Part shown: positions 8,735 through 62,829 of the stretch, piece by piece
Numbering within the stretch: position 1 is the stretch's first letter
How the letters are laid out: every line of letters begins with the position of its first letter
Sequence record: MW822007.1
Strand: one strand, 5' to 3'
DNA length: 64,000 nt
Source of the DNA: Escherichia phage BF15
Notes under the pieces: model-generated
What the model saw: the letters and a program-made list of their open reading frames with translations, nothing else
Told to the model about the DNA's origin: nothing
Databases searched by the model: none
Program-made: the position numbers and the translations under genes

Positions 8735-8760
8735 ATGGGGACCGAAAGGTCCCCATATTT
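8735..8760. terminator. Bidirectional hairpin terminator between convergent gene 54 and the 96-aa ORF
   Basis: GGGGACC-GAAA-GGTCCCC followed by ATATTTTTATTT. Confidence 0.55.
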
Positions 8761-9051
8761 TTATTTACGGAATGAAATAAAAGCAGCAACTGAAGCAACT
8801 AAACTGTCTTCAATATAAACTTCAATTTTTACCGGAGCTTCTGACTCAAATTTACCTGTTACTACACCTTGGAAAATGCTTTCAGTCTGTTCTGGCTTTG
8901 AAAAATTTTCAGAAGGAAAAATTCCGAACTTTTTATCTGTTCCAAAAATTTTGATAAATTCATCATAAACTGCTTCATTAAAAGCGTTATCAGCAGGAAT
9001 AACGCCTTCAACTACAAGTTCTTGACCTAAAAAGCGCAAAGAAGATTTCAT
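8761..9051 (-). CDS. Hypothetical protein, 96 aa
   Basis: Track ORF preceded by GAGG Shine-Dalgarno and an early promoter. Confidence 0.6.
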   Translation of the reverse strand: MKSSLRFLGQELVVEGVIPADNAFNEAVYDEFIKIFGTDKKFGIFPSENFSKPEQTESIFQGVVTGKFESEAPVKIEVYIEDSLVASVAAFISFRK

Positions 9052-9082
9052 TTTGTGTTCCTCATGTTATGTCAGTAAGTCT

Positions 9083-9112
9083 ACTATAACACAACACGAG
9101 GGACTTGTAAAC
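9083..9112 (-). promoter_or_regulatory. T4-type early promoter (GTTTAC-N18-TATAGT); part of a 53-nt block repeated at 24487..24539
   Basis: Minus strand GTTTACAAGTCCCTCGTGTTGTGTTATAGT. Confidence 0.6.
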
Positions 9113-11169
9113 TACATCTTGAACTTTTTAGACATTCCATTGATGTTAACCAAAGAAGCCAAGATTTGAGAAACTTCGTTTTCCTCTTCTTTTGATTCTT
9201 CTACAAGGAATTGATTAAACCCAGCCATTGGACGAACTTCACCAGTTTCCATTAGATGGTCGCCATCATATACCGATTCTTCTAATTGTTCAGAAGGAGG
9301 AACGATTGTGCCTTCGATTAGATACTTGTTATAAGCAGTTTCTTTCATCATGTACGTACTCACTTTATTAATCTTCAGCAAAATTCCACGTGGTAAAATA
9401 ACTTCAGCTTCTGATGGAAATCCTGATAAATGTCCTGGAACGATAACTTTGATTCGCTCAGCTCCTTTAATTACCATACCCACGCTAGTTTCAGCATCTT
9501 CATTGGCATACGCAGAATGACTACCCATATGCATTAAATCTTCAGCGTCAACAGAACCTTCTCCTTCACCAGAAAATACTGCACCGGAATCATCTAGAGC
9601 CATATAGTTTTTACCATACTCACCGAAGATATTTGGTTTAAGCGATGTGGATACGAAGTTCTTGAAGTAGAACATTTTATTTTCAATATTATGACGTAAA
9701 GTTTTAAAGGTAACTTCTTGTCCACGGTAAAGTGTAGTTCCTGGAGGAAGAACTGATCCTTTGGCAAAGGCAGAATCCATTGTCTCGATGTGTTTAATAG
9801 CTCGTTCCATATATTCTTCACGGGTAGAATCCGGTTTACCTAAAAGGAATGAGTTCATTTCAACATATGAATCTGCACAATAATCTTCAATTACATCAGA
9901 CTCAGCCTGAGTTAATCCTTTTGGAGTTACTTCAGTACTTGCATATTCATACGCTTGAGAAGCAGACTCATTAATCAATTTATAAACGCCATTCATGACA
10001 AATTGAACAATAGCTACCTTTTCATCTGGTGTGGCTTTAGAACCTTTAACTAAATCATTGACAATTTTCTTAATAACATCAAAGCTATTAGAAATATTAA
10101 TGTCAGCAAGATCACTTAAAATTTTATCAGTTTTATAATCAAAAAATTCTTTATTCTTTAAATATTCTTGAGAACCTTGATATGATATATCGCTCTGTAA
10201 CTTGATAGATGGATCACGTAAACGCGCATGAGCCAATGCAATATGATTTCGGAAGCTTTCTAATTCATAATCACTAGATTTAAAACGGGAAGCACTCCTC
10301 ATACCACCGATAGCTCCTTTGCTGAAGTTTGAACCAACCTGAATAACGCCAGAGTTCATTGGTCCTTCTGCTTTATATACCGGAACTTTAGATTCAAACT
10401 CTTGATATTTCTTAGCAGCGAAGCTATCACCCTGAAGTGAAGCATCGACAGTAGAGTATTGAGCTTGTGCTGCTAATCGACGACTAATTTTAGTTTTCTG
10501 AATAACAGCTTGATCCGTGCGCTTATCATTTTCTAAAGCAATAGAAGCAGCAACAGCGACAGCTTTAGGAACAGCATTACCTGTTTTAACGTCTACATAA
10601 ACATCACCAACCTTTGATTCAACTTTTGTGAATAACTCAGTTGAAATAGGAGGTACACCTGGAATGTCTTCTAAATTAGCATTTTTACGGTAAACCATAA
10701 TATATGCGTACTTTTTATCGTAATCCCAGATTTCCTTTAAAAGAACATATCGACCTGCTCCTTTAGTACGTACTAAACGGTCGGCAATAACTTGCATTTG
10801 ACGAGCTGCACCATTTGTTTTACTCTTTAGTACGCGGAATAAGCATGCGTCAATTTTATACTGTTTCATTGTTTGAAGAGCAGTATCAAAAACGGCATTA
10901 ATGACGCCAATTGGATTTCCACCTAAGTTTTTAAGTTTAACTAATGATAGTTTCTCATTAACACCTATCATTACGATATGCATCATTTTATCGCCTGGCT
11001 TAACGTTTTTATTTGTATCACCGCCAGAGGTGTATGTACAAAATCTAAATCCAGGAAGCACACTTTCTTCGCCTGCTTGAATAGCAAAAATTTGAGGTAT
11101 TTTATGCTTAGGATTTAAGTTAACAACCGGCGCCGAAGCGCCGTCAAATAATTCTGTAATAAGTTCCAT
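9112..11169 (-). CDS. Alt-like ADP-ribosyltransferase, tandem paralog (685 aa)
   Basis: Shares the MELITELFD N-terminus, CTYTSGGDTN, MHIV and FYFKNFVSTSL...EAEVILPRG (R-S-E ART motifs) with the adjacent alt gene. Confidence 0.8.
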   Translation of the reverse strand: MELITELFDGASAPVVNLNPKHKIPQIFAIQAGEESVLPGFRFCTYTSGGDTNKNVKPGDKMMHIVMIGVNEKLSLVKLKNLGGNPIGVINAVFDTALQTMKQYKIDACLFRVLKSKTNGAARQMQVIADRLVRTKGAGRYVLLKEIWDYDKKYAYIMVYRKNANLEDIPGVPPISTELFTKVESKVGDVYVDVKTGNAVPKAVAVAASIALENDKRTDQAVIQKTKISRRLAAQAQYSTVDASLQGDSFAAKKYQEFESKVPVYKAEGPMNSGVIQVGSNFSKGAIGGMRSASRFKSSDYELESFRNHIALAHARLRDPSIKLQSDISYQGSQEYLKNKEFFDYKTDKILSDLADINISNSFDVIKKIVNDLVKGSKATPDEKVAIVQFVMNGVYKLINESASQAYEYASTEVTPKGLTQAESDVIEDYCADSYVEMNSFLLGKPDSTREEYMERAIKHIETMDSAFAKGSVLPPGTTLYRGQEVTFKTLRHNIENKMFYFKNFVSTSLKPNIFGEYGKNYMALDDSGAVFSGEGEGSVDAEDLMHMGSHSAYANEDAETSVGMVIKGAERIKVIVPGHLSGFPSEAEVILPRGILLKINKVSTYMMKETAYNKYLIEGTIVPPSEQLEESVYDGDHLMETGEVRPMAGFNQFLVEESKEEENEVSQILASLVNINGMSKKFKM

Positions 11170-11172
11170 GAT

Positions 11173-13266
11173 TTATCCTTGAACGAACTTGTAAGGCATG
11201 TTTGCAATATCTATGCAAGATGCAATAATTCCAAGAGATGATTCTACTTTTTGTTTAACATTTGATGAAACAAATGATGCAAAGTCAACTCTGTCTTCTA
11301 TTTCAATATCACCTGTCATTGCAACTACTTCGCCGGTTTCCATTAGACGGTCACCGTCATAAATTACTGATTCGGTGAGTTCTTCCGTAGTCATAACTTC
11401 AGCTTGAATGAGTTTTGTATTATTAGATGTTGTTCCGTCATTATTAGAAGCATCAGTTATTTTATTAACTTTGACCATCAATCCGCGTGGTAGAATAACT
11501 TCAGCTTCTGTTGCTATTCCGAGACTTCCTGGATATACAACATTAACTTTATGAGCTCCATCAATTGCCCATCCTATTTGAACTTTAACGTATTCAGGAT
11601 TTTCTTTATACGCTCTTATTTCGTTTGGATTAATAGTTATTCCTTCTTCATTTTTATCAACTGTCAATTCATTACGAGCTTCTGGTTCTAAAAGACCAAT
11701 ACCAGCATGTGTAATTCCAAAACGTCCAAAAATGATAGGAGTTAAAGAAGTAGATACAAAATTTCTGAAATAGAACACTTTATTTTTAACTAGTGCTTCG
11801 TATATAGGAGCAGTCATGCTTTGAGCACGATAAACTGTAATGCCTTCTGGTATACGGTCACCATTTTCAAAAGCTGAATCTAAATTATTTATCGCAGATT
11901 CAATTTCTTTTTCACTCATTACATCATATCGTTCTGGATTGTAGCGGCCTAAAAGAAGATTATTGATGTCAGTATATCCTGATCCACAATACTCTCTAAT
12001 GCCGCGCTTTTGCGATGGAGTATATTTAGAACCATCACGGGCAATAGTAATATCAATCATTGGACCTGCACCAATTCCAGAAAAGCTATAAATCATTCGT
12101 TTGAGGAATTTAGTTTTTGCTGCGTTCCAGGAATTTTTAGTTATTTCTTCCCAGACTTCATCTGGCTGCCCTTTACGAGTTTTATTATGTTTATCAAGCC
12201 AATTATCTTTATATTCTTCAAAGAATTTATTAACAGCTGCTGCGTATTTCTCTAAACATTTTATTGAAGTAGTTGGTTCATTTTTGATCGCGTTAAAAAT
12301 TACATCTTTAATTTTTTCAGAAACTTCATCAACCTCACTTTTTGGAAAGAATTTATAGTCATAGTGAAGTTCATCTGCGGTTCCTTCGGCAATGATTTTT
12401 GCTGCCTTAGTTTTAGAAGCTAATGAATTAATTCCAAGCTTCATTTCTTCTGCTTCGGGAATTAAAGGAGCAGTAGCAGGTTTATTGAAATTAGCTGCAG
12501 TAGATTCATACTTCTGGAATAATTCGCTTTCAAATCTAGAAGATTCTAATGATTGACTTTGCGCAATTGCTCTACGGGAAATTTTAACTTTAACAATAAC
12601 AGCTTGGTCAGAACGTTTATCGTTTTCTTGCGCAATAGATGCTGCAATTGCCTCATTTTTAGTTACTTGAGCTCCAGTATCTTTATTGATATAAACATCG
12701 CCGACTTTCGATTCAACTTTAGTAAAGAGCTCGGTACTAATTTCTGGAACTCCTGGAATGTCTTCTAATGATACATTTTTGCGATGTATAAGAATATATG
12801 CATACTTTTTATCGTAATCCCAGAGTTCCTTAAGAAGGACGTATCTGCCACCTGAACGACTACGGATAAGTCTATCAGCAATAACTTGAATTTGTCGAGC
12901 TTGACCAGCAGTTTTAGACTTAAGAATACGAAGCATGCAGGCATCAATTTTATACTGACGCATCGTTTGCATCGCAACAGTAAAAACTGAATTGATATAA
13001 TTAATTGGGCTTGGACCGAGACCTTTTAATTTAGCAATTGAACCTTTAGCAGTTAATGTAAAAGGAACAATATGCATCATTTTATCGCCCATTTTTAAAT
13101 CACGGTTAGTATCACCTCCAGATGTATAGGTACATAAACGAAAGCCTGGTTGTTCAATTGCGTCATCGACATGAACTGAAAAAATTTGTGGTATTTTCTT
13201 CTTTGGATTTAAGTTTGTAATCGGAAGAGTAGTATCTTCGTCAAATAATTCTGTAATAAGTTCCAT
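11173..13266 (-). CDS. alt: Alt ADP-ribosyltransferase (capsid-packaged)
   Basis: 697 aa from second Met; MELITELFDEDTTLPITNLNPKKKIPQIF N-terminus; STS and EAEVILPRG motifs; adjacent to gene 30. Confidence 0.85.
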   Translation of the reverse strand: MELITELFDEDTTLPITNLNPKKKIPQIFSVHVDDAIEQPGFRLCTYTSGGDTNRDLKMGDKMMHIVPFTLTAKGSIAKLKGLGPSPINYINSVFTVAMQTMRQYKIDACMLRILKSKTAGQARQIQVIADRLIRSRSGGRYVLLKELWDYDKKYAYILIHRKNVSLEDIPGVPEISTELFTKVESKVGDVYINKDTGAQVTKNEAIAASIAQENDKRSDQAVIVKVKISRRAIAQSQSLESSRFESELFQKYESTAANFNKPATAPLIPEAEEMKLGINSLASKTKAAKIIAEGTADELHYDYKFFPKSEVDEVSEKIKDVIFNAIKNEPTTSIKCLEKYAAAVNKFFEEYKDNWLDKHNKTRKGQPDEVWEEITKNSWNAAKTKFLKRMIYSFSGIGAGPMIDITIARDGSKYTPSQKRGIREYCGSGYTDINNLLLGRYNPERYDVMSEKEIESAINNLDSAFENGDRIPEGITVYRAQSMTAPIYEALVKNKVFYFRNFVSTSLTPIIFGRFGITHAGIGLLEPEARNELTVDKNEEGITINPNEIRAYKENPEYVKVQIGWAIDGAHKVNVVYPGSLGIATEAEVILPRGLMVKVNKITDASNNDGTTSNNTKLIQAEVMTTEELTESVIYDGDRLMETGEVVAMTGDIEIEDRVDFASFVSSNVKQKVESSLGIIASCIDIANMPYKFVQG

Positions 13267-13289
13267 CATATCCTCTCTAGTGTTTATTC

Positions 13290-13297
13290 TATTTATA
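13290..13297 (-). promoter_or_regulatory. Late promoter (TATAAATA) upstream of alt
   Basis: Minus strand TATAAATA about 25 nt upstream of the alt start. Confidence 0.5.
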
Positions 13298-13302
13298 AAA
13301 TT

Positions 13303-13322
13303 AAAGGCCCGAAGGCCTTTAA
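13303..13322 (-). terminator. Tetraloop hairpin (GGCC-CGAA-GGCC) with T-rich tail
   Basis: aaaggcccgaaggccttt; minus strand hairpin followed by TTTAATTTTAT. Confidence 0.45.
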
Positions 13323-13507
13323 TAATCTAGTGGTAAGAGAGTACGATATATTTCAAACTTTGGCCCTTTTTCATAGGCATCAAATGTTTCTGTAAATTTA
13401 TTATAAGCATATGCATCTACAAATTCGAGAACGATTTGTGATACAGAAGTAGAAACATCTCCACCTTCTTTTTGAGCCACGACAATTGTTTCTAAGTAAG
13501 CTTTCAT
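13319..13507 (-). CDS. Hypothetical protein, 62 aa
   Basis: Track ORF; start overlaps the ligase stop. Confidence 0.5.
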   Translation of the reverse strand: MKAYLETIVVAQKEGGDVSTSVSQIVLEFVDAYAYNKFTETFDAYEKGPKFEIYRTLLPLDY

Positions 13508-16917: not shown

Positions 16918-17255
16918 TAGAACCTCATCTGAAAACCGTGCGATTTAACATTACCACCACCAATGTCAGAAATATTAATTTCACGCGCAATTGAAGGGTC
17001 AATGTCAATTTCACGATTGAGTTTAACGATAGCTAAAGTATCGCGCCCATTTACACTACGGAACTCTAAGGGGCAGACTACATTAACGTAGTTTTTAATC
17101 GATTCACTGGTAGGTTGCAAATGAGCAGGAAGGCCTTTAGGCGCCTTTGAGAAAACCACTTCACAGAAATTTTTACGGGTATCAAAATAAGTAGTCATAA
17201 ACATAGTATTTTCCTCAGTAAGGGGCCGAAGCCCCTGTTTTATTTTAAATATCAA
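16917..17255 (-). CDS. Hypothetical protein
   Basis: 112-aa track ORF. Confidence 0.5.
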   Translation of the reverse strand: MIFKIKQGLRPLTEENTMFMTTYFDTRKNFCEVVFSKAPKGLPAHLQPTSESIKNYVNVVCPLEFRSVNGRDTLAIVKLNREIDIDPSIAREINISDIGGGNVKSHGFQMRF

Positions 17256-17610
17256 ATTCGTTAAGAACTACATCAAAGATTGCTTTAAGATGCTCAGGTT
17301 TAGCTCTGTTACTCAGAATATGACGAATCCAAGTTTTAACCAGAAGCTTACGATTGACGCCATTCCAGCAAGGATGAGTACCTAAATCACGTTGACGGAA
17401 ATCATCATCTAATGCGATTTTAAAAGAAGAACCTTCTTTCGTGATTGAAACCGTGATGCCATTTTCAAATCGCATATAAACGTAGTTAGGAGTCATATAC
17501 TGTTCAATTTCACATACTGATCCATTTTGATGTTTCCAAAGGCAGATAGTATCAATAGAACCTGCAATACCGTTAGAAACATATTTACGTTCAAAGTTAA
17601 TGTAGTTCAT
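17245..17610 (-). CDS. Hypothetical protein
   Basis: 121-aa track ORF preceded by GGAGAATAAAAATG. Confidence 0.55.
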   Translation of the reverse strand: MNYINFERKYVSNGIAGSIDTICLWKHQNGSVCEIEQYMTPNYVYMRFENGITVSITKEGSSFKIALDDDFRQRDLGTHPCWNGVNRKLLVKTWIRHILSNRAKPEHLKAIFDVVLNEFDI

Positions 17611-17647
17611 TTTTATTCTCCGAGATATTTAATTGCGGTACAGGTAT

Positions 17648-17676
17648 ATAATATCATATCCTGTACCAAAGTAAAC
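17648..17676 (-). promoter_or_regulatory. T4-type early promoter
   Basis: Minus strand GTTTAC-N17-TATTAT. Confidence 0.55.
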
Positions 17677-17678
17677 AA

Positions 17679-18011
17679 TTATTTTACTACTTTCCAATGT
17701 TGCATGTCAAGTTTACCAACTTTTTTCATCTTCTCAATTAAGCGTTCGGCACGCTGGCGAGCTGTAACATAATACCATTCACCTAATTCATTTTGTTCAA
17801 TTTTTCCAACGATTACTGTATTCAATTCATAAATCCAACCAGTAAAGAAATTATGAACTTGGATTGTAAAGGTGAAATCTGTTCCCATACCTTCTGTTGT
17901 TTCTACTTCAATAATATCACCTTCAACTGCCATTAAGAACCACATAGTTTCGTTATATTCACCATTGAAGCATTTAGTTTTAACTGTGGCGTTCAGATTA
18001 ATCGTTTTCAT
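17679..18011 (-). CDS. Hypothetical protein
   Basis: 110-aa track ORF preceded by GGAGAATAAAATG. Confidence 0.55.
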   Translation of the reverse strand: MKTINLNATVKTKCFNGEYNETMWFLMAVEGDIIEVETTEGMGTDFTFTIQVHNFFTGWIYELNTVIVGKIEQNELGEWYYVTARQRAERLIEKMKKVGKLDMQHWKVVK

Positions 18012-18038
18012 TTTATTCTCCTTTGTTTGTGTAAGATA

Positions 18039-18068
18039 ATACTATCACAAAGGAACTATACTGTAAAC
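18039..18068 (-). promoter_or_regulatory. T4-type early promoter
   Basis: Minus strand GTTTACAGTATAGTTCCTTTGTGATAGTAT. Confidence 0.55.
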
Positions 18069-20944: not shown

Positions 20945-21177
20945 AGTACGCCATACACCCTTTGTGCTTCAACTAATCCATCAAAATCCAATTTGAGATG
21001 TGTTATTTGGTCACCATCACCTGGATTCACAATTACTAATACTGAACGAGGAGTTTCGGTAATAACACGAACCGATGTTTCAGGAAATCGTTCAGAAACC
21101 TTATTTACCAATTCCTGAGCAAATAGTTTAACTTTTTCTTGGAATTCTTTAACAGTAATTGGTTTTTCACTTAGCAT
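20941..21177 (-). CDS. Hypothetical protein
   Basis: 78-aa track ORF. Confidence 0.5.
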   Translation of the reverse strand: MLSEKPITVKEFQEKVKLFAQELVNKVSERFPETSVRVITETPRSVLVIVNPGDGDQITHLKLDFDGLVEAQRVYGVL

Positions 21178-21206
21178 TTCAATTTCCTCATTTGTTTGGT
21201 AGAGCT

Positions 21207-21236
21207 ATAATATCACAACTCTACCGTAAAGTAAAC
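21207..21236 (-). promoter_or_regulatory. T4-type early promoter
   Basis: Minus strand GTTTAC-N18-TATTAT. Confidence 0.55.
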
Positions 21237-23634: not shown

Positions 23635-23984
23635 TTAGAAAGGTCCTGGATGTCTTCTGCGAACTTGTTGAAGGAGTTGTTGATTTGTTTTTCAACCAAT
23701 CCTGGCTTATGAGCCACCACATCCGCCTTCTTTGCATCTTTGCGCAGTTTTTCATTTTCACGCTCAATAGCAGCAATTGCCTCACGATTTTTATTATTCA
23801 TCGCATCAATATAATTATACTGAATTCGCAAATTATCTAATGCTAAAGCGTTTTCATTGGCCGTTTTTGTAATTTCAGTAACCGATGTTTCTAATCTTTC
23901 TACCTTATTTTTTAAAATAATAGATGTTCCGCCAAATGCTATTACAAGTAATAGCAATCCAGCTGTAAAATTACTTACATGCAT
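23631..23984 (-). CDS. Inner-membrane spanin (i-spanin)
   Basis: 117 aa; N-terminal TM helix then coiled-coil-like region; paired with the lipoprotein. Confidence 0.7.
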   Translation of the reverse strand: MHVSNFTAGLLLLVIAFGGTSIILKNKVERLETSVTEITKTANENALALDNLRIQYNYIDAMNNKNREAIAAIERENEKLRKDAKKADVVAHKPGLVEKQINNSFNKFAEDIQDLSK

Positions 23985-24478
23985 AAAGTTTTAATAACCT
24001 CTACAATATCGTCTTGAGAAAGACCGTTAATTAAAATATGATGTTCAGCTGGAGATTTAGAAATTTTAAAACATGCCTCAACATCTTCTGCCATATCTGA
24101 TGCACTACGATTTGGATTACTAATTCCAAGACGATGTTTTCCCGTCAAAGGATTAACGATGATGTAGCATTTACAGTTGTTAATATGAACATTAGGTTGA
24201 GTCTGATTAATGAACACATCACAATCATATTTCGCAAGCTGATTTTCTAAAAAGACTTTCATCTCCTCAACTGCGTCAGGAAGCATATCACGGGCTTGCT
24301 CAAGACGACGATTTCGATATTCTTTGATGGTCGTTTTCCGCTTGACTTGCTTAGCTAAATCTTTCTTAAGATCGGTGATATATCCAACTCGACGATTTCC
24401 TTTAAATACAGAAATCCCATCTGTAGTATCACCGTATGCTTCAACGACCATTTCAGTAGTAATAAGCTGTAAATCCAT
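23975..24478 (-). CDS. alc: Alc, inhibitor of host transcription
   Basis: 167 aa from second Met; position between spanins and rnlA as in T4. Confidence 0.7.
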   Translation of the reverse strand: MDLQLITTEMVVEAYGDTTDGISVFKGNRRVGYITDLKKDLAKQVKRKTTIKEYRNRRLEQARDMLPDAVEEMKVFLENQLAKYDCDVFINQTQPNVHINNCKCYIIVNPLTGKHRLGISNPNRSASDMAEDVEACFKISKSPAEHHILINGLSQDDIVEVIKTLCM

Positions 24479-24506
24479 CATAAAGTCCTCATGTTATGTC
24501 AGTAAG

Positions 24507-24539
24507 TCTACTATAACACAACACGAGGGACTTGTAAAC
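24507..24539 (-). promoter_or_regulatory. T4-type early promoter upstream of alc; identical copy of the block at 9060..9112
   Basis: 53 nt identical to 9060..9112, covering the -35, -10 and 5' UTR. Confidence 0.6.
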
Positions 24540-24542
24540 AGC

Positions 24543-26130
<1,588 letters not shown>

Positions 26131-32664: not shown

Positions 32665-32907
32665 TCAAACAGACTTTTTCACAATTTTCCAATCAGCTTT
32701 AAACTGATCGACGTCAGAATGGTAAATCCAGAATCCTGCGCTTTCTCCATCCTCATAAAGAGGGCATCCATCGCATTCATCTTCCCATCCCATATCACGC
32801 AAAAGACGTTCAGCTTTTTCAACAAGTTCAGAATCTTTACCGATGATATTAAAATACCATTTACCCCTAACTTCTGAATCTTTAATGCTCTGACGTTGTA
32901 ATCTCAT
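32665..32907 (-). CDS. Hypothetical protein
   Basis: 80-aa track ORF preceded by an early promoter. Confidence 0.5.
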   Translation of the reverse strand: MRLQRQSIKDSEVRGKWYFNIIGKDSELVEKAERLLRDMGWEDECDGCPLYEDGESAGFWIYHSDVDQFKADWKIVKKSV

Positions 32908-32932
32908 TTTATTCTCCTTAGTTGATAGGGTA

Positions 32933-32962
32933 ATAATATCACACTACTACCCTACTGTAAAC
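32933..32962 (-). promoter_or_regulatory. T4-type early promoter
   Basis: Minus strand GTTTACAGTAGGGTAGTAGTGTGATATTAT. Confidence 0.5.
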
Positions 32963-33619: not shown

Positions 33620-33641
33620 CAGCAGTATTGCCGATAGTTGT

Positions 33642-33671
33642 ATAGTACCACAAAGCTTTATGCTTGTAAAC
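33642..33671 (-). promoter_or_regulatory. T4-type early promoter downstream of gene 32
   Basis: Minus strand GTTTACAAGCATAAAGCTTTGTGGTACTAT. Confidence 0.6.
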
Positions 33672-33693
33672 AGTTTTGTGAAAAAATTTTGAA

Positions 33694-33722
33694 ATAAAAA
33701 AGGGGACCTCTAGGGTCCCCAA
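33694..33722 (-). terminator. Rho-independent terminator after gene 32
   Basis: GGGGACC-CTAGA-GGTCCCC hairpin then TTTTTTATTT on the minus strand. Confidence 0.7.
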
Positions 33723-37016: not shown

Positions 37017-40000
37017 ATGGCCGAGATTAAAAGAAAGTTCAGAGCAGAAGACGGTCTGGACGCAGGTGGCGATAAAATAATCAACGTAGCTTTAGCTGAT
37101 CGTACCGTAGGAACTGACGGTGTTAACGTTGATTACTTAATTCAAGAAAACACAGTTCAACAATACGATCCAACTCGTGGATATTTAAAAGATTTTGTAA
37201 TCATTTATGATAACCGCTTTTGGGCTGCTATAAATGATATTCCAAAACCGGCAGGAGCTTTTAATAGCGTACGCTGGAGAGCATTACGTACTGATGCTAA
37301 TTGGACAACCGTTTCATCAGGACCTTATCAATTAAAGTCAGGCGAATCAATTTCAGTTGATACTGCAGCTGGTAATGACATTACATTTACTTTACCATCT
37401 TCCCCAATTGATGGAGATACTATCGTTCTCCAAGACATTGGAGGAAAACCTGGTGTTAACCAAGTTTTAATTACAGCTCCGGTGCAAAGCATTGTAAATT
37501 TTAGAGGTCAGCAAGTACGATCAGTACTAATGACTCATCCAAAATCGCAGATAGTTTTAATTTTTAGTAATCGTCTGTGGCAAATGTATGTTGCTGATTA
37601 TAGCAGAGAAGCTGTAGTTGTGACGCCGGCAAGTCTTTATCAAGCGCAATCTAACGATTTTATCGTGCGCAGATTTACTTCAGCCGCGGCGATTAATATT
37701 AAACTTCCGAGATTTGCTAATCATGGCGATATTATTAATTTCGTCGATTTGGACAAATTAAATCCACTTTATCATACAATTGTCACAACATACGATGAAA
37801 CGACATCAGTACAAGAAGATGGAACTCATTCTATTGAAGGACGTACATCGATTGATGGTTTCTTGATGTATGATGATAATGAAAAATTGTGGAGATTGTT
37901 TGACGGGGATAGTAAAGCACGTTTACGTATTATAACAACTAATTCAAATATTCGTCCAAATGAAGAAGTTATGGTATTTGGTGCGAATAACGGAACAACT
38001 CAAGCAATTGAACTTCAGCTTCCAACCGATATTTCTATTGGTGATACTGTTAAAATTTCCATGAATTACATGAGAAAAGGCCAAACAGTTAAAATCAAAG
38101 CTGCCGGTGAAGATAAAATTGCTTCTTCAGTTCAATTGCTGCAATTCCCAAAACGTTCAGAATATCCGCCTGAAACTAAATGGGTGACTGTTCAAGAATT
38201 AGTTTTTAACGGCGAAACCAATTATGTTCCAGTTTTACAGCTTGCTTATATAGAAGATTCTGATGGAAAATACTGGGTGGTGCAGCAAAACGTGCCAACA
38301 GTTGAAAGAGTTGATTCTTTAAATGATTCTACTAGAGCAAGATTAGGCGTAATTGCTTTAGCTACACAAGCTCAAGCAAATGCTGATTTAGAAAATTCTC
38401 CGCAAAAAGAATTAGCAATTACACCAGAAACATTAGCTAACCGTACTGCCACAGAAACTCGTAGAGGTATCGCAAGAATAGCAACTACTGCCCAAGTGAA
38501 CCAGGATACTACATTCTCTTTTGCTGATGATATTATCATCACTCCTAAAAAGCTGAATGAAAGAACTGCCACAGAAACTCGTAGAGGTGTTGCTGAAATT
38601 GCTACACAGCAAGAAACTAATGCAGGTACTGATGATGCTACAATCATCACTCCTAAAAAGCTTCAAGCTCGTCAAGGTTCTGAATCATTATCTGGTATTG
38701 TAACCTTTGTATCTACCGCAGGAGCTACTCCAGCTTCTAGTCGTGAATTAAATGGTACAAATGTTTATAATAAAAACACTAATAATTTAGTTGTTTCGCC
38801 TAAAGCTTTGGATCAGTATAAAGCTACTCCAACACAACAAGGTGCAGTAATTTTAGCAGTTGAAAGTGAAGTAATTGCTGGACAAAGCCAAGAAGGATGG
38901 GCAAATGCGGTTGTAACGCCAGAAACGCTACATAAAAAGACATCAACTGATGGAAGAATTGGTTTAATTGAAATTGCTACGCAAAGTGAAGTTAATACAG
39001 GAACTGACTATACACGTGCAGTCACTCCTAAAACTTTAAATGACCGTAGAGCAACTGAAAGTTTAAGTGGTATAGCTGAAATTGCGACACAAGTTGAATT
39101 CGACGCAGGCGTCGACGATACTCGTATCTCTACACCATTAAAAATTAAAACCAGATTTAATAGTACTGATCGTACTTCTGTTGTTGCTCTATCTGGATTA
39201 GTTGAATCAGGAACTCTCTGGGACCATTATACCCTTAATATTCTTGAAGCAAATGAGACACAACGTGGTACACTTCGTGTAGCTACACAGGTCGAAGCTG
39301 CTGCAGGAACATTAGATAATGTTTTAATAACTCCTAAAAAGCTTTTAGGTACTAAATCTACTGAAGCGCAAGAAGGTGTTATTAAAGTTGCAACTCAGTC
39401 TGAAACTGTGACTGGAACATCAGCAAATACTGCTGTATCTCCAAAAAATTTAAAATGGATTGCGCAGAGTGAACCTACTTGGGCAGCGACTACTGCGATA
39501 AGGGGCTTTGTTAAAACTTCATCTGGTTCAATTACGTTCGTTGGTAATGATACAGTCGGTTCTACTCAAGATTTAGAACTGTATGAGAAAAATAGTTATG
39601 CAGTATCACCATATGAATTAAACCGTGTATTAGCAAATTATCTGCCGTTAAAAGCAAAAGCTGTAGATAGTAATTTATTGGATGGTCTAGATTCATCTCA
39701 GTTCATTCGTAGGGATATTGCACAGACTGTTAATGGTTCACTAACCTTAACCCAACAAACGAATCTGAGTGCCCCTCTTGTATCATCTAGTACTGCTACG
39801 TTTGGTGGATCAGTTACGGCAAATAGTGTACTAACTATTTCTAATACTGGAACAGAAACTCATCTGATTTTTGAGAAAGGACCTCAAACTGGAACTAACC
39901 AAGCACAGACGGTGACTATTAGAGTGTGGGGTAATCAATTTAGTGGGGAATCAGACACAACACGTTCTACTGTATTTGAAGTTGGTGATGAAACATCTAA

Positions 40001-50205: not shown

Positions 50206-50246
50206 TTTCTAATCTCCGTAATTCTGTATCAGTAGTTGATAGTTGT

Positions 50247-50276
50247 ATAGTACCACAGTATGCTTTGGTTGTAAAC
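50247..50276 (-). promoter_or_regulatory. T4-type early promoter for motA
   Basis: Minus strand GTTTACAACCAAAGCATACTGTGGTACTAT. Confidence 0.6.
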
Positions 50277-50302
50277 CGTTTTGTGAAAAAATTTTAAAAT
50301 AA

Positions 50303-50327
50303 AAAGGGAGAGCCGAGGCTCTCCCTA
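50303..50327 (-). terminator. Rho-independent terminator (minus strand)
   Basis: GGGAGAGC-CGAG-GCTCTCCC hairpin then TTTTTATTTT. Confidence 0.6.
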
Positions 50328-53252: not shown

Positions 53253-53352
53253 AGTAAGCGTTTAATACATCAATCATTAAAACGATTGGGAATATACTCA
53301 AAACTACTAGTATTATAACTACATTCCATATAGCTTTAACAATCTTTTTCAT
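53239..53352 (-). CDS. Tiny membrane protein (37 aa); the track ORF is over-extended
   Basis: MKKIVKAIWNVVIILVVLSIFPIVLMIDVLNAYFGFM preceded by GGAGGAACAGAAAATG; an early promoter lies inside the longer track ORF. Confidence 0.4.
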   Translation of the reverse strand: MKKIVKAIWNVVIILVVLSIFPIVLMIDVLNAYFGFM

Positions 53353-53380
53353 TTTCTGTTCCTCCGTAGTTGATAGGGTA

Positions 53381-53410
53381 ATAGTACCACGGAAGAACAG
53401 TCTTGTAAAC
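53381..53410 (-). promoter_or_regulatory. T4-type early promoter
   Basis: Minus strand GTTTACAAGACTGTTCTTCCGTGGTACTAT. Confidence 0.5.
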
Positions 53411-53632
53411 AACTTTTTTAAAAATATTCGTAATAAATGTGAATACCAACTACTACCGCTGAAACCTGTGCAACCCACCACGCGCAAGCAATAAGTACAG
53501 AATTCATAATTTTCATAATAACCTCATTACAAAAGTAAATGTTAAACAAATTACTGGAATACTAATTAACCAAACAAAACACCACCATAGTGAACTCATA
53601 GTTCAATCTCAACCATTTTCATTTCATTTTAC

Positions 53633-53839: not shown

Positions 53840-53873
53840 TTTATTCTCCAAATCCGTATCAGTTGATAGTTGT

Positions 53874-53903
53874 ATAGTACCACAGTCCTTGTGGTATGTA
53901 AAC
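53874..53903 (-). promoter_or_regulatory. T4-type early promoter
   Basis: Minus strand GTTTACATACCACAAGGACTGTGGTACTAT. Confidence 0.55.
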
Positions 53904-53918
53904 CGTTTTGTGAATTTT

Positions 53919-54476
53919 TTAAATGGAAAGATACCATCCGTTGTAGTTGCTTTTTCTTACAACCTTACGAAGGTCTTCTCTGTCACCGATGAACTTCGGA
54001 GTGTACTGGATGACACCTGGATGAATTTCTTTAGTGTTGAATATAATTATACAGTCAGCGACTTGATGATTTAGAATGGGCCCTAGATTTATTCCAGAAC
54101 CATATGGATACTCTCCGCTGCATCCTGTTGTTACCGAAATCCAACGTGAGTCAGTTTGATGTGTCTTAACTTCTACACGAAGCCCACAGTATTTTGGATG
54201 TGCTAAAACATCCCATGCATATGTGTACGGATCATCGACATCTTCTTGGCCTTTATTGACATATCCGCTTAGCCAATCTGCCACAAAAAACTCTGCGTAC
54301 ACAGCGATACGGCATCTTTCGATAACTTCTGCTTTATCCTGGTTCGGGTTTTGTTTTAAAGAGTATCTTGCTGTATCAGCAATTTTGACCTTCATTTCAC
54401 TAGTCAAGTCACTGTTCGATAGGGTAAATGTCGGAATCTGAAATAGTCTCTGTAAACCCGGATTCGTTTTCTGCAT
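53919..54476 (-). CDS. denB: Endonuclease IV
   Basis: 185 aa as in T4; between ndd cluster and rIIB. Confidence 0.8.
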   Translation of the reverse strand: MQKTNPGLQRLFQIPTFTLSNSDLTSEMKVKIADTARYSLKQNPNQDKAEVIERCRIAVYAEFFVADWLSGYVNKGQEDVDDPYTYAWDVLAHPKYCGLRVEVKTHQTDSRWISVTTGCSGEYPYGSGINLGPILNHQVADCIIIFNTKEIHPGVIQYTPKFIGDREDLRKVVRKSNYNGWYLSI

Positions 54477-54558
54477 TTAGACTTTCCTTTATGTCGGAAT
54501 CACTGATATTCATATAAATCATAATTTCTCTTAAAACAAAAGGGCCGAAGCCCTTATT

Positions 54559-54753
54559 TTATTTGAATTGTGCAATTCTTTTCTCTAAACAGTCAGCGTA
54601 AGATTTCATTGAGATGAACTGCGAAAGTAGCAGTTCTTGCTCAACTGCACTAACTGTTAGAAACTTTGCGCTTTCTAAAAATTTACTCAGTGCATTAATT
54701 TTGAGCATTAATTGATCGTATTCTTCTTTTACTCGTGCTTGATAACCTAACAT
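54559..54753 (-). CDS. Hypothetical protein flanked by near-identical hairpins
   Basis: 64-aa track ORF; AGGGCC-GAAG-CCCTTATTT hairpins at about 54538..54558 and 54764..54785. Confidence 0.5.
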   Translation of the reverse strand: MLGYQARVKEEYDQLMLKINALSKFLESAKFLTVSAVEQELLLSQFISMKSYADCLEKRIAQFK

Positions 54754-54781
54754 AATTTTCCTTAGTTAAGGGCCGAAGCCC

Positions 54782-55720
54782 TTATTTAAATTGTTCAGTA
54801 ACGTCTTCAACTACTTCGTATTGGCAGGTACGCATTTTAGCGTCGTTGTAATCAATCGGAATTGATACTACATCGCGAGGATGTACTTTAACTTTTACAA
54901 CTCGGCTAGTTGAACTGCCAAAGTGACGAATATAAGATTTAGAACACACGTGCAGACCACGAGAACAAGTTTGTGTATCATCGTCATTCACACGAGTACG
55001 TGGCATTTTAACTACTTTACCAGGACTGTTATCAAAGGTATTTGAGTGGCAGTCAAAGTAATTGCTGCGAACTACTTTCCAAGCATAGAAGTAACCATCT
55101 TCTGTAATTTCAATATCGTTTGCTACCAAGAAATCAAAGAGTCGAGACACCGCTTTTTGGCTTGGATTTTCCAGCAGATTTTCCAAGAACGGAAAATAAA
55201 ATTCAAAGTTTTCGCCTTTTTCCATCGAATCGAGAATACGATCAACTAAACCAGACCGCAATTCAATGTTTTGATAGAACAAGCTTCCACCTTCAATTCG
55301 AACATCACCGGAAATATATTTTTCAACAGCGCGACGAACATTAATTTTTTGTGCCGCTTCTTCCAACTTATCCGCTACAAGCAGATTAAGAATTTCCTGG
55401 AAGTTTGAATGAGTATTAGGAGTTGCGTTATAAGTTACACCGTCAACAGTAATTGAAATGAATTTTTTAGATGCATTCCAAATAATGTCAGATTTAGCAA
55501 CTGGAGCAATAACTGCATCGCTATTAACTTTAACTGTAATATCACCGCTAATAGTAACTTTAGAGCGTTTAGCTTCTTCAGCATTTTTCAAAACACGACG
55601 GATTGTGTCAACCGATACACCTTGCCAATCAGCCAATTCCTGTTGGGTGTAATTACCACTTGAATACAGCTTAACAATTTCAGCTTGTTCGTTTTTGGTC
55701 AGGCATTTAATATTGTACAT
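54782..55720 (-). CDS. rIIB: rIIB protein
   Basis: 312 aa as in T4; adjacent to rIIA. Confidence 0.9.
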   Translation of the reverse strand: MYNIKCLTKNEQAEIVKLYSSGNYTQQELADWQGVSVDTIRRVLKNAEEAKRSKVTISGDITVKVNSDAVIAPVAKSDIIWNASKKFISITVDGVTYNATPNTHSNFQEILNLLVADKLEEAAQKINVRRAVEKYISGDVRIEGGSLFYQNIELRSGLVDRILDSMEKGENFEFYFPFLENLLENPSQKAVSRLFDFLVANDIEITEDGYFYAWKVVRSNYFDCHSNTFDNSPGKVVKMPRTRVNDDDTQTCSRGLHVCSKSYIRHFGSSTSRVVKVKVHPRDVVSIPIDYNDAKMRTCQYEVVEDVTEQFK

Positions 55721-61037: not shown

Positions 61038-61086
61038 CACTTATCCTCGTTTGGTTTCGGGAATATTATACTCCGGTAATCATAAA

Positions 61087-61104
61087 GCTAAAGGCCCGAA
61101 GGCC
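61087..61104 (-). terminator. Tetraloop hairpin with T-run (minus strand)
   Basis: GGCC-CGAA-GGCC then TTTTATTT. Confidence 0.5.
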
Positions 61105-61106
61105 TT

Positions 61107-61367
61107 TTATTTAAAACGGATAGTCGAATCCTTGAAGAATAGACCAGAACATACGGTTCCTTCTACTTTCTGCCCGGTAGGTCCAATAGCACGAAATCCA
61201 GTGTGTTGGAAATCATTTTCAGAGCAACCGAACCAATTATATCCAGTGATTTCAATATTAGTAAAACCACTTGAAGACAAAACTTTAGTTGCATTATCAG
61301 CATCAGTGCATCCTACTAAAGACACTGCTAATACTAATGCTGCGATAGAACGATTAATATATTTCAT
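61107..61367 (-). CDS. Predicted small lipoprotein
   Basis: 86 aa; MKYINRSIAALVLAVSLVGC signal peptide with lipobox. Confidence 0.6.
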   Translation of the reverse strand: MKYINRSIAALVLAVSLVGCTDADNATKVLSSSGFTNIEITGYNWFGCSENDFQHTGFRAIGPTGQKVEGTVCSGLFFKDSTIRFK

Positions 61368-62168: not shown

Positions 62169-62340
62169 TACAATTTCCTCATTAATTGAACATTGGAGCG
62201 ATGCGTTTCAGAAGAGTATCAGCGCCTTTAACGAATTATCCATTTTATTCTCCAAGTTGTTTTCTGTATCAGTAGTTGATATTGATATAGTACCATAATC
62301 AACTACTGATGTATATAGTTTTATGAAAAAATTTTAAACT

Positions 62341-62829
62341 TTATGCATAGCGAGCTTTGCTATAGTGTTTAATCCAACTTTCAGGAATGACTTTGTATGT
62401 TCCTAAAAATACCACGTTGTACAACTTAACACCATCTTCTACCCATTGATCTGTAATGTATCCACACATAGCGCGAGTATAAGCAACCTTTCCATCATCT
62501 TTGATAAATTTAAATTCGCAAGGAGCAATGAACTTAATAGCTTGACCGAGTTTCCACTTAAAGTCTACACCTACATGCGAAGTATCAATCGTTTCAATTC
62601 CTTTAGCGGGAACAGCTTTCAAAAACGCAGATTCAAGAAATTTCGCGCGAACATAACCAAACTGAGGTTTAGACTTTCCATCTTTAGGAATGATACGAAC
62701 TTTTACTTCAGAATCTTCATCTTTAACACCATGCTTAAGCTGAATGCTTACAATTTCGACCAATTTTCCTGCTGCTTTAGAACGGGATTTATCAGATACA
62801 CGAGCAATTTCACCAATATTAATAATCAT
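62341..62829 (-). CDS. motB: MotB (DNA-binding early protein)
   Basis: 162 aa as in T4; synteny. Confidence 0.6.
   Translation of the reverse strand: MIINIGEIARVSDKSRSKAAGKLVEIVSIQLKHGVKDEDSEVKVRIIPKDGKSKPQFGYVRAKFLESAFLKAVPAKGIETIDTSHVGVDFKWKLGQAIKFIAPCEFKFIKDDGKVAYTRAMCGYITDQWVEDGVKLYNVVFLGTYKVIPESWIKHYSKARYA

Follow-up and report, generated by a model that had tools for sequence, protein, structure and literature searches.

The early genes alt.-3 and alc of Escherichia phage BF15 are each preceded by an identical 54-nt cassette, which combines a σ70 promoter, a leader and an SD sequence, and whose RNA is predicted to fold into a hairpin that encloses the promoter and pairs the SD. Taken as a whole, the folding predictions and the genome comparisons make it fairly probable that the cassette serves as a translational gate in which a hairpin is combined with an early promoter, and that its two copies derive from an old duplication homogenised by gene conversion. 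The components and both mechanisms, hairpin gating and gene conversion, are already known and nothing in the cassette is surprising in principle; what is new relative to the known hairpin-gated genes of T4 is that the nested promoter is of the early class, theirs being late.

The cassette and its genomic context

The window, i.e., the whole 64,000-nt stretch of DNA analysed (MW822007.1), belongs to the genus Tequatrovirus (the T4 genus), and both regions that carry the cassette match about 500 T4-like phages at 90–99% identity. The initial annotation had reported a perfect 53-nt duplication; on re-inspection the 53-nt string indeed occurs exactly twice in the window, at 9060–9112 and 24487–24539, with 0 mismatches, and a repeat search over the whole window, in which the pair forms family D8, adds one more identical base, for a total of 54 nt (9059–9112 = 24486–24539). 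A third copy of the 53-nt string was not found in the window with up to 3 mismatches allowed, and the string had 0 matches in 100 dinucleotide-preserving shuffles. The two copies are direct repeats located 15 kb apart, and all the genes that flank either of them are on the minus strand. The description of the repeat as lying in "otherwise diverged intergenic DNA" does not stand, since the cassette itself accounts for 54 of the 60–61 intergenic bases at each of the two sites. In a search of the phage collection, the 54-mer matched 499 records at 997 places, or close to two copies for each genome. This rules out an assembly artefact as the source of the repeat, the reservation under which it was first described, and shows, for the related phages that were to be checked, that the cassette is found at both sites. 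The coordinates of the features are collected in Table 1.

Table 1. Positions of the cassette elements, of the flanking genes and of other repeats (window coordinates unless indicated).
Feature	Position	Strand	Remarks
Cassette copy A (alt.-3 copy)	9059..9112	−	54 nt; promoter, leader and SD
Cassette copy B (alc copy)	24486..24539	−	54 nt; same sequence as copy A
alt.-3	8761..9051	−	96 aa; early gene driven by copy A
alt paralog	9112..11169	−	full-length, 685 aa, "Alt-like ADP-ribosyltransferase"; upstream of copy A
alc	23975..24481	−	inhibitor of host transcription; early gene driven by copy B
rnlA	24543..25703	−	gene 63, RNA ligase 1 / tail-fibre attachment; upstream of copy B
−35 element GTTTAC	A, 9107..9112; B, 24534–24539	−	
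TGn and −10 element TATAGT	A, 9083..9091; B, 24510–24518	−	
Hairpin 5′ arm	A, 9088..9101; B, 24515–24528	−	CCUCGUGUUGUGUU
Hairpin 3′ arm	A, 9060..9073; B, 24487–24500	−	GACAUAACAUGAGG; leader with SD
SD GAGG	A, 9060–9063; B, 24487–24490	−	
regB cassette	298–357 of the fetched record		Kanagawavirus IME523
D1 repeat members	33633–33706, 50238–50311, 53372–53445, 53865–53938, 62278–62351		
D4/D13/D14 hairpins	17208–17245, 54527–54564, 54755–54792; 13290–13323, 61077–61110		

The placement of the cassette before the 96-aa ORF downstream of the alt paralog (alt.-3) and before alc, as first proposed, is confirmed. Copy A fills the gap between the stop codon of the alt paralog (9112–9114) and alt.-3, and the G of this TAG stop is the first base of GTTTAC, while copy B begins 3 nt downstream of the stop codon of rnlA (24543–24545). 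In T4, the position upstream of copy A is occupied by the truncated alt.-1/alt.-2 instead of a full-length paralog. The window carries tandem full-length alt paralogs (9112–11169 and about 11173–13270, minus strand), also seen as the repeat families D9, D10, D12 and D15 with a spacing of about 2094–2097 nt; most of the relatives fetched have the full-length paralog and T4 retains alt.-1/alt.-2 as the remnant of the second alt copy. On the other side of alt.-3, where gene 54 converges on it, the two genes are separated by a bidirectional terminator-like hairpin (ATGGGGACCGAAAGGTCCCCAT, 8735–8756), whose only T-run is on the plus-strand (gene 54) side.

On the minus strand the cassette reads GTTTAC AAGTCCCTCGTGTTGTGT TATAGT AGACTTACTGACATAACATGAGGA, in agreement with the promoter GTTTAC-N18-TATAGT, leader and GAGG first described for both copies. 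In σ70 terms, the promoter corresponds to TTTACA-17-TATAGT, with 10/12 matches at both sites, and has in both copies an extended −10, namely a TGT directly before TATAGT. The transcription start would lie 7 nt after the −10, at about 9076 in copy A and about 24503 in copy B, giving the cassette a leader of its own of about 27 nt. The GAGG sits 8 nt before the alt.-3 ATG and likewise 8 nt before the second ATG of alc (24478), which is the start annotated in T4. The sequence upstream of the promoter (UP-element region) is AAAAAGTTCAAGATGTA at alt.-3 and GAAGGATATTAAGCT at alc; a UP element around −40 to −60 would fall inside the 3′ end of the upstream coding gene. The GTTTAC −35, the TGn, the TAnnnT −10, the correct spacing and the position directly before T4-early genes are all as in the T4 early promoters, whose consensus is of the UP/−35/TGn/−10 type (PMC2988021, PMC1524935), and we see no difference of substance. 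Furthermore, the alc copy of one relative, fPS-90, is annotated as "predicted early promoter" in its record, and T4 omics data place alt.-3 and alc among the genes with early RNA and early protein (PMC9697503), both of which bear out the reading of the repeat as an early-promoter/5′ UTR cassette.

At neither site did a scan of the transcribed strand reveal a terminator-like site from the stop codon of the upstream gene to the promoter. An intrinsic terminator formed by the cassette hairpin is likewise rejected, as the stem is not followed by a U-tract; after the hairpin comes AACACAAAAUG at one site and CUUUAUG at the other. Searching the whole window against Rfam, no family reached the gathering score and only chance-level matches occurred near the cassette. 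An AUG within the cassette (CAUGAGG) opens a mini-ORF of 4–5 codons (9051–9066 and 24478–24493, minus strand), whose UGA stop overlaps the start codon of the gene (AUGA) at both loci. This mini-ORF is probably incidental, since it lacks its own SD and its conservation does not extend to other genera.

A predicted hairpin that encloses the promoter

The first reading of the sequence had missed that the promoter is nested in a predicted hairpin that would mask the SD. The cassette RNA (57 nt) is predicted to form an 18-bp interrupted hairpin of −23.0 kcal/mol (z = −5.3), and none of 200 shuffled sequences was as stable. The promoter spacer and the first −10 base make up the 5′ arm, the remaining −10 bases are found in a bulge and in the apical stem, and all four SD bases are paired in both the MFE and the centroid structures. 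Starting from the inferred +1, the predicted own-promoter transcript lacks the 5′ arm, begins 3′ of the loop and has a folding energy of 0 to −2 kcal/mol (−0.8). On the other hand, RNA reading in from the upstream gene has both arms and is predicted to fold at −23 to −24 kcal/mol with the SD paired.

Each copy would thus represent a compact early module, with a strong σ70 promoter, a leader of its own, GAGG and no terminator before it. The genes from which transcription would read in are of the alt family (late or middle RNA) at copy A and rnlA (early RNA, late protein) at copy B; in T4, alt.-1/-2 are classified as middle RNA, alt as late, and rnlA as early RNA with late protein (PMC9697503). 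We propose that the read-through RNA, which holds both arms, would fold and bury the SD, while the RNA made from the own promoter, which would begin inside the loop enclosed by the two arms and without the 5′ arm, would be unstructured and translated. Hence, alt.-3 and alc would be produced solely from their own immediate-early transcript, the downstream gene being early-only because the read-through RNA masks the SD and the own RNA does not. The translational block on the read-through RNA is what we infer from these predicted folds.

A similar organisation exists in T4 for e, soc, 49 and I-TevI, where the RBS is buried in a helix of the read-through RNA and a nearby promoter gives a translatable RNA (PMC3014915). 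The cassette shares with these genes an SD paired in the upstream RNA and a nested promoter whose RNA is without the 5′ arm, both of which are predictions in our case. However, their promoters are late (gp55), whereas that of the cassette is an early σ70 promoter; their hairpins delay the translation of late genes located in early regions, whereas the logic of the cassette would be "early only"; and, unlike theirs, the genes upstream of the cassette are of later kinetic class. Neither alc nor alt.-3 is among the hairpin-gated genes in the accessible T4 reviews, including PMC3014915. T4 is the reference system for phage gene regulation, and these reviews give only late-promoter hairpin gates (e, soc, 49, I-TevI); should the predicted fold be functional, an early-promoter version of hairpin gating would be added by alc and alt.-3. 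This would explain how an immediate-early gene located right after a gene of later class, with no terminator in between, can give an early-only protein. With the gating predicted here, phage engineering could also make use of the cassette as a self-insulating expression module of 54 bp.

Within Tequatrovirus, pairing is kept or strengthened by natural variants at pairs 16-49 (G·U to A-U), 21-44 (G·U to G-C), 25-40 (U·G to U-A) and 15-50 (C-G to U·G to U-A), and is broken by others at 19-46 (C·A), 25-40 (U·U) and 29-38 (A·C). Covariation within the genus is not significant, with one double change and 71/500 shuffles reaching the observed score; because there is too little variation, we do not use it as support for the fold.

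Pairing of the SD with pre-start sequence is found in the MFE structure of 4 of the 12 early promoters of the window, as compared to 3.6 after shuffling of the spacers. Therefore, only the stability of the cassette hairpin is exceptional and not the SD pairing itself, and SD masking as a general property of the early promoters of the window is rejected. The stability stands out in three cassettes, namely the alc/alt.-3 pair, 53350–53410 and, more weakly, 18009–18068. The latter two are GTTTAC-type early promoters on the minus strand with a spacer that pairs with the SD, at −22.7 kcal/mol before a 37-aa ORF (53350–53410) and at −12.1 kcal/mol before a 110-aa ORF (18009–18068) that looks like T4 30.8 by position and length; their sequences are unrelated to the alc/alt.-3 cassette. 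Three more early promoters, at 21175–21236, 17608–17676 and 32905–32962 (all minus strand), have a strong inverted repeat straddling the −10 (e.g., GGTAGAGTTGTGATATTATAGCTCTACC), in which the spacer pairs with the initial transcribed region and the SD is free.

The promoter-hairpin design in other T4-type lineages

Upstream of alc, the promoter-hairpin design recurs with other stem sequences in 7 of the 10 other lineages examined. Six of these lineages, i.e., Gelderlandvirus, Karamvirus, Jiaodavirus, Dhakavirus, Winklervirus and Klebsiella phage HMGUkp2, have the rnlA-alc synteny with a spacer of 58–63 nt, which consists of GTTTAC, the 5′ arm within the promoter spacer, the −10 and a 3′ arm with GGAG or GAGG at its end. 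The stems differ across lineages (e.g., UCUCCAUUUGGUUGUG, UCCUCAUCAG, and CCUCGUUUGUU) and have energies of −15.6 to −26.7 kcal/mol. A variant is found at alc of Biquartavirus and Gaprivervirus, where the 5′ arm overlaps the −10 or directly follows it. The fold of the Mosigvirus alc leader gives no SD masking, and there is almost no intergenic space in an Acinetobacter phage.

MAFFT alignment followed by RNAalifold gave no consensus structure across genera. While the −35 and −10 are fixed, the register of the arms with respect to them varies. In place of the alignment we used an arm-swap energy test, which requires no structural alignment and in which the arms of 10 cassettes were taken as fixed windows set by the promoter elements. 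The mean energy is −19.75 kcal/mol for cognate arms as compared to −10.8 kcal/mol for non-cognate ones, and 0 of 20,000 permutations reached the observed mean, a result somewhat inflated by relatedness among some of the lineages. Compensatory changes are also seen between the alc cassettes of STML-198 and CGG4-1, and between the arms of the alc-type and regB-type cassettes of Karamvirus/Kanagawavirus-like phages (CCAUUUGG/CCAAAUGG versus CCUUUUAG/CUAAAAGG). The evidence for the predicted fold is thus stronger across genera than within Tequatrovirus.

In Kanagawavirus and PEi20-like phages, a promoter-hairpin cassette is found before regB, with a spacer identical at 16 of 18 bases to that of the alc cassette in Karamvirus-type phages. 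As for alt.-3, its promoters in Gaprivervirus, Mosigvirus and Marfavirus directly adjoin the stop codon of alt, as in the window, and show no SD masking; in Gaprivervirus and Mosigvirus, the only two compared in this respect, the alt.-3 promoter differs from the alc cassette. Because the alt.-3 promoters of other genera are unmasked and unlike the alc cassette, the alc site is likely the source of the design. It would be the ancestral home of the cassette, from which a copy would have been placed before alt.-3 in the Tequatrovirus ancestor.

The cassette also resembles the promoter-early stem-loop (PeSL) cassettes (Arbiol 2010, PMC2839356; Comeau 2014, PMC4122927). Both are short repeated early-promoter modules that include the SD and provide a patch of homology for recombination, and the promoter type TTTACW-N17-TAYWAT of the PST/T4 pair matches that of our cassette. 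However, the stem-loop of PeSLs directly precedes the promoter (Figure 3 legend of PMC4122927) and serves there as a terminator or attenuator, whereas the stem-loop of the cassette encloses the spacer, the −10 and the SD and is without a U-tract. In addition, PeSLs are tied to indels and mini-circles in hyperplastic regions, whereas the only outcome seen with the cassette is the homogenisation of copies 15 kb apart.

The hairpin might also have one of two other roles. It could be an element of RNA processing, stability or attenuation and not a translational mask, for instance a target of RNase III or RNase E, a protector of the 3′ end of the alt and rnlA messages, or a shield against RegB. An 18-bp interrupted helix at a gene boundary would suit such a role, RNA structure has been reported to protect against RegB (PMC3014915), and PeSL stem-loops do serve as terminators or attenuators (PMC2839356, PMC4122927). 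Nevertheless, we hold this unlikely, if worth weighing, considering the lack of a U-tract and of a terminator-like site on the transcribed strand, the difference between the SD (GAGG) and the RegB motif (GGAG), and the fact that the 3′ arm ends on the SD in 8 of the 11 lineages examined, which would be needless for a pure end-protector.

The second role would be at the level of DNA, with the inverted repeat acting as an operator, a cruciform or a PeSL-like recombination hotspot, and the overlap with the SD being incidental. The Tequatrovirus cassette folds at −24.4 kcal/mol as sense RNA versus −15.4 kcal/mol as antisense, since three G·U pairs favour the sense RNA; in the other genera sense and antisense folds are equally stable and the strand preference is inconsistent. 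Because the sense preference is confined to Tequatrovirus, a DNA-level role has to be considered, all the more as repeated promoter modules are documented as recombination sites of T4-type phages (PMC2839356, PMC4122927). Yet, the stems vary in sequence from genus to genus and among the promoters of a single genome, so that there is no common protein site, and the three G·U pairs make the Tequatrovirus structure specific for sense RNA. We consider this role quite improbable and keep to translational masking as the preferred function of the hairpin.

Age of the duplication and exchange between the copies

The perfect identity of the copies had been ascribed to recent copying of a promoter module or to gene conversion. 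Identity over 54 nt is what a recent duplication in the window genome would leave; however, the same two loci carry copies in the 499 records, T4 included (in which they differ at 1 site), and the copies differ at up to 6 sites in other genomes. Since both copies are present in T4 and in these records, the duplication is as old as the genus Tequatrovirus. Recent copying is therefore scarcely credible, and at most the homogenisation of the copies in the window genome is recent.

Gene conversion, on the other hand, is supported by the comparison of the copy pairs of 21 genomes, taken chiefly from GenBank phage records, as IMG/VR gave only about five Tequatrovirus genomes. The copies of one genome differ at 0 to 6 sites, the only pairs with 0 differences among the 21 being those of the window genome and of one IMG/VR genome. 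On average, 2.6 differences separate the copies of one genome, 2.9 the copies at different loci of different genomes, and 3.3 and 2.2 the orthologs; a permutation of the pairing gives p = 0.044. There are no fixed differences between the alt.-3 and alc loci in the 21 genomes, and eight sites, two of them transversions, have the same two alleles at both loci. Finally, T19C, which is private to UGKSEcP2, is found in both its copies despite breaking a pair. At the sequence level, the absence of fixed differences, the eight shared-allele sites and the private T19C in both copies indicate recurrent ectopic gene conversion between the two copies, which would account for their perfect identity in the window genome.

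Part of the shared polymorphism could be due to recurrent mutation at the few unconstrained sites. This consideration could be extended to the whole pattern, with purifying selection on promoter, hairpin and SD plus recurrent mutation maintaining similarity without any conversion. Indeed, 39 of the 54 cassette positions are invariant, and the variable sites cluster in the loop and at G·U pairs. However, the other early promoters of the genome have wholly different spacers and leaders, so that function does not dictate the cassette sequence; selection would not be expected to place the pair-breaking T19C in both UGKSEcP2 copies, nor to give two shared transversion polymorphisms and no fixed differences; and, among close relatives, the cassette is more variable (2–7%) than its flanks (1–1.5%). 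Selection alone is thus clearly unlikely, and recurrent conversion is the reading that we retain.

The alt.-3 copy of the window has the allele that several of its flank relatives (ZN18, ECO07P5, GEP001 and P922) carry at alc and not at alt.-3. This suggests, as far as direction can be read from alleles, a recent alc-to-alt.-3 conversion in the window genome. Ordinary allelic recombination could also have contributed to the identity seen in the window, as the alt.-3 copy of NBG2, a genome added afterwards for the flank comparison only and not one of the 21, is only 1 nt away from that of the window.

The proposal that the repeat is a substrate for recombination between the loci holds for non-crossover outcomes and not for crossover, by which about 15.4 kb would be lost, with DNA ligase (gene 30) and gene 31 in the deleted stretch. 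Genes 30 and 31 are essential in T4. Only non-crossover products should therefore survive, which fits the outcomes seen between the copies, all of conversion type. Since the duplication, the two 54-bp copies would have undergone repeated non-crossover exchange, ending in the identity found in the window genome. The copy pair would represent a natural, genus-wide record of ectopic conversion across only 54 bp of homology, and the about 500 sequenced genomes could be used to quantify the conversion rate and the tract length.

A broader reading, which we put forward tentatively and rate as possible, considers the alc promoter-hairpin a portable "early-only" module of the whole subfamily, recopied before alt.-3 and regB and evolving in concert by conversion. 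Compensatory evolution would keep the hairpin across Tevenvirinae, because making Alc and other immediate-early products from later read-through RNA would do harm; the module would have been copied independently before alt.-3 in Tequatrovirus and before regB in Kanagawavirus and PEi20-like phages; and copies close enough to each other would evolve in concert through conversion over the 54 bp of homology.

The window contains other dispersed repeats. Five 74-nt early-promoter repeats (family D1), 64–84% alike, have a common leader ACAACTATC and upstream sequence AAAACNGTTTAC, and could offer further dispersed homology for recombination. Hairpins with T-runs that contain the repeated GGGCCGAAGCCC and GGCCCGAAGGCC (families D4, D13, and D14) are probably a shared terminator module. 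Finally, diverged internal direct repeats of 33–41 nt (families D3 and D5), spaced by 108–120 and 483–681 nt, are found at 38445–39343 inside a large gene, which looks like a repeat-containing fibre gene.
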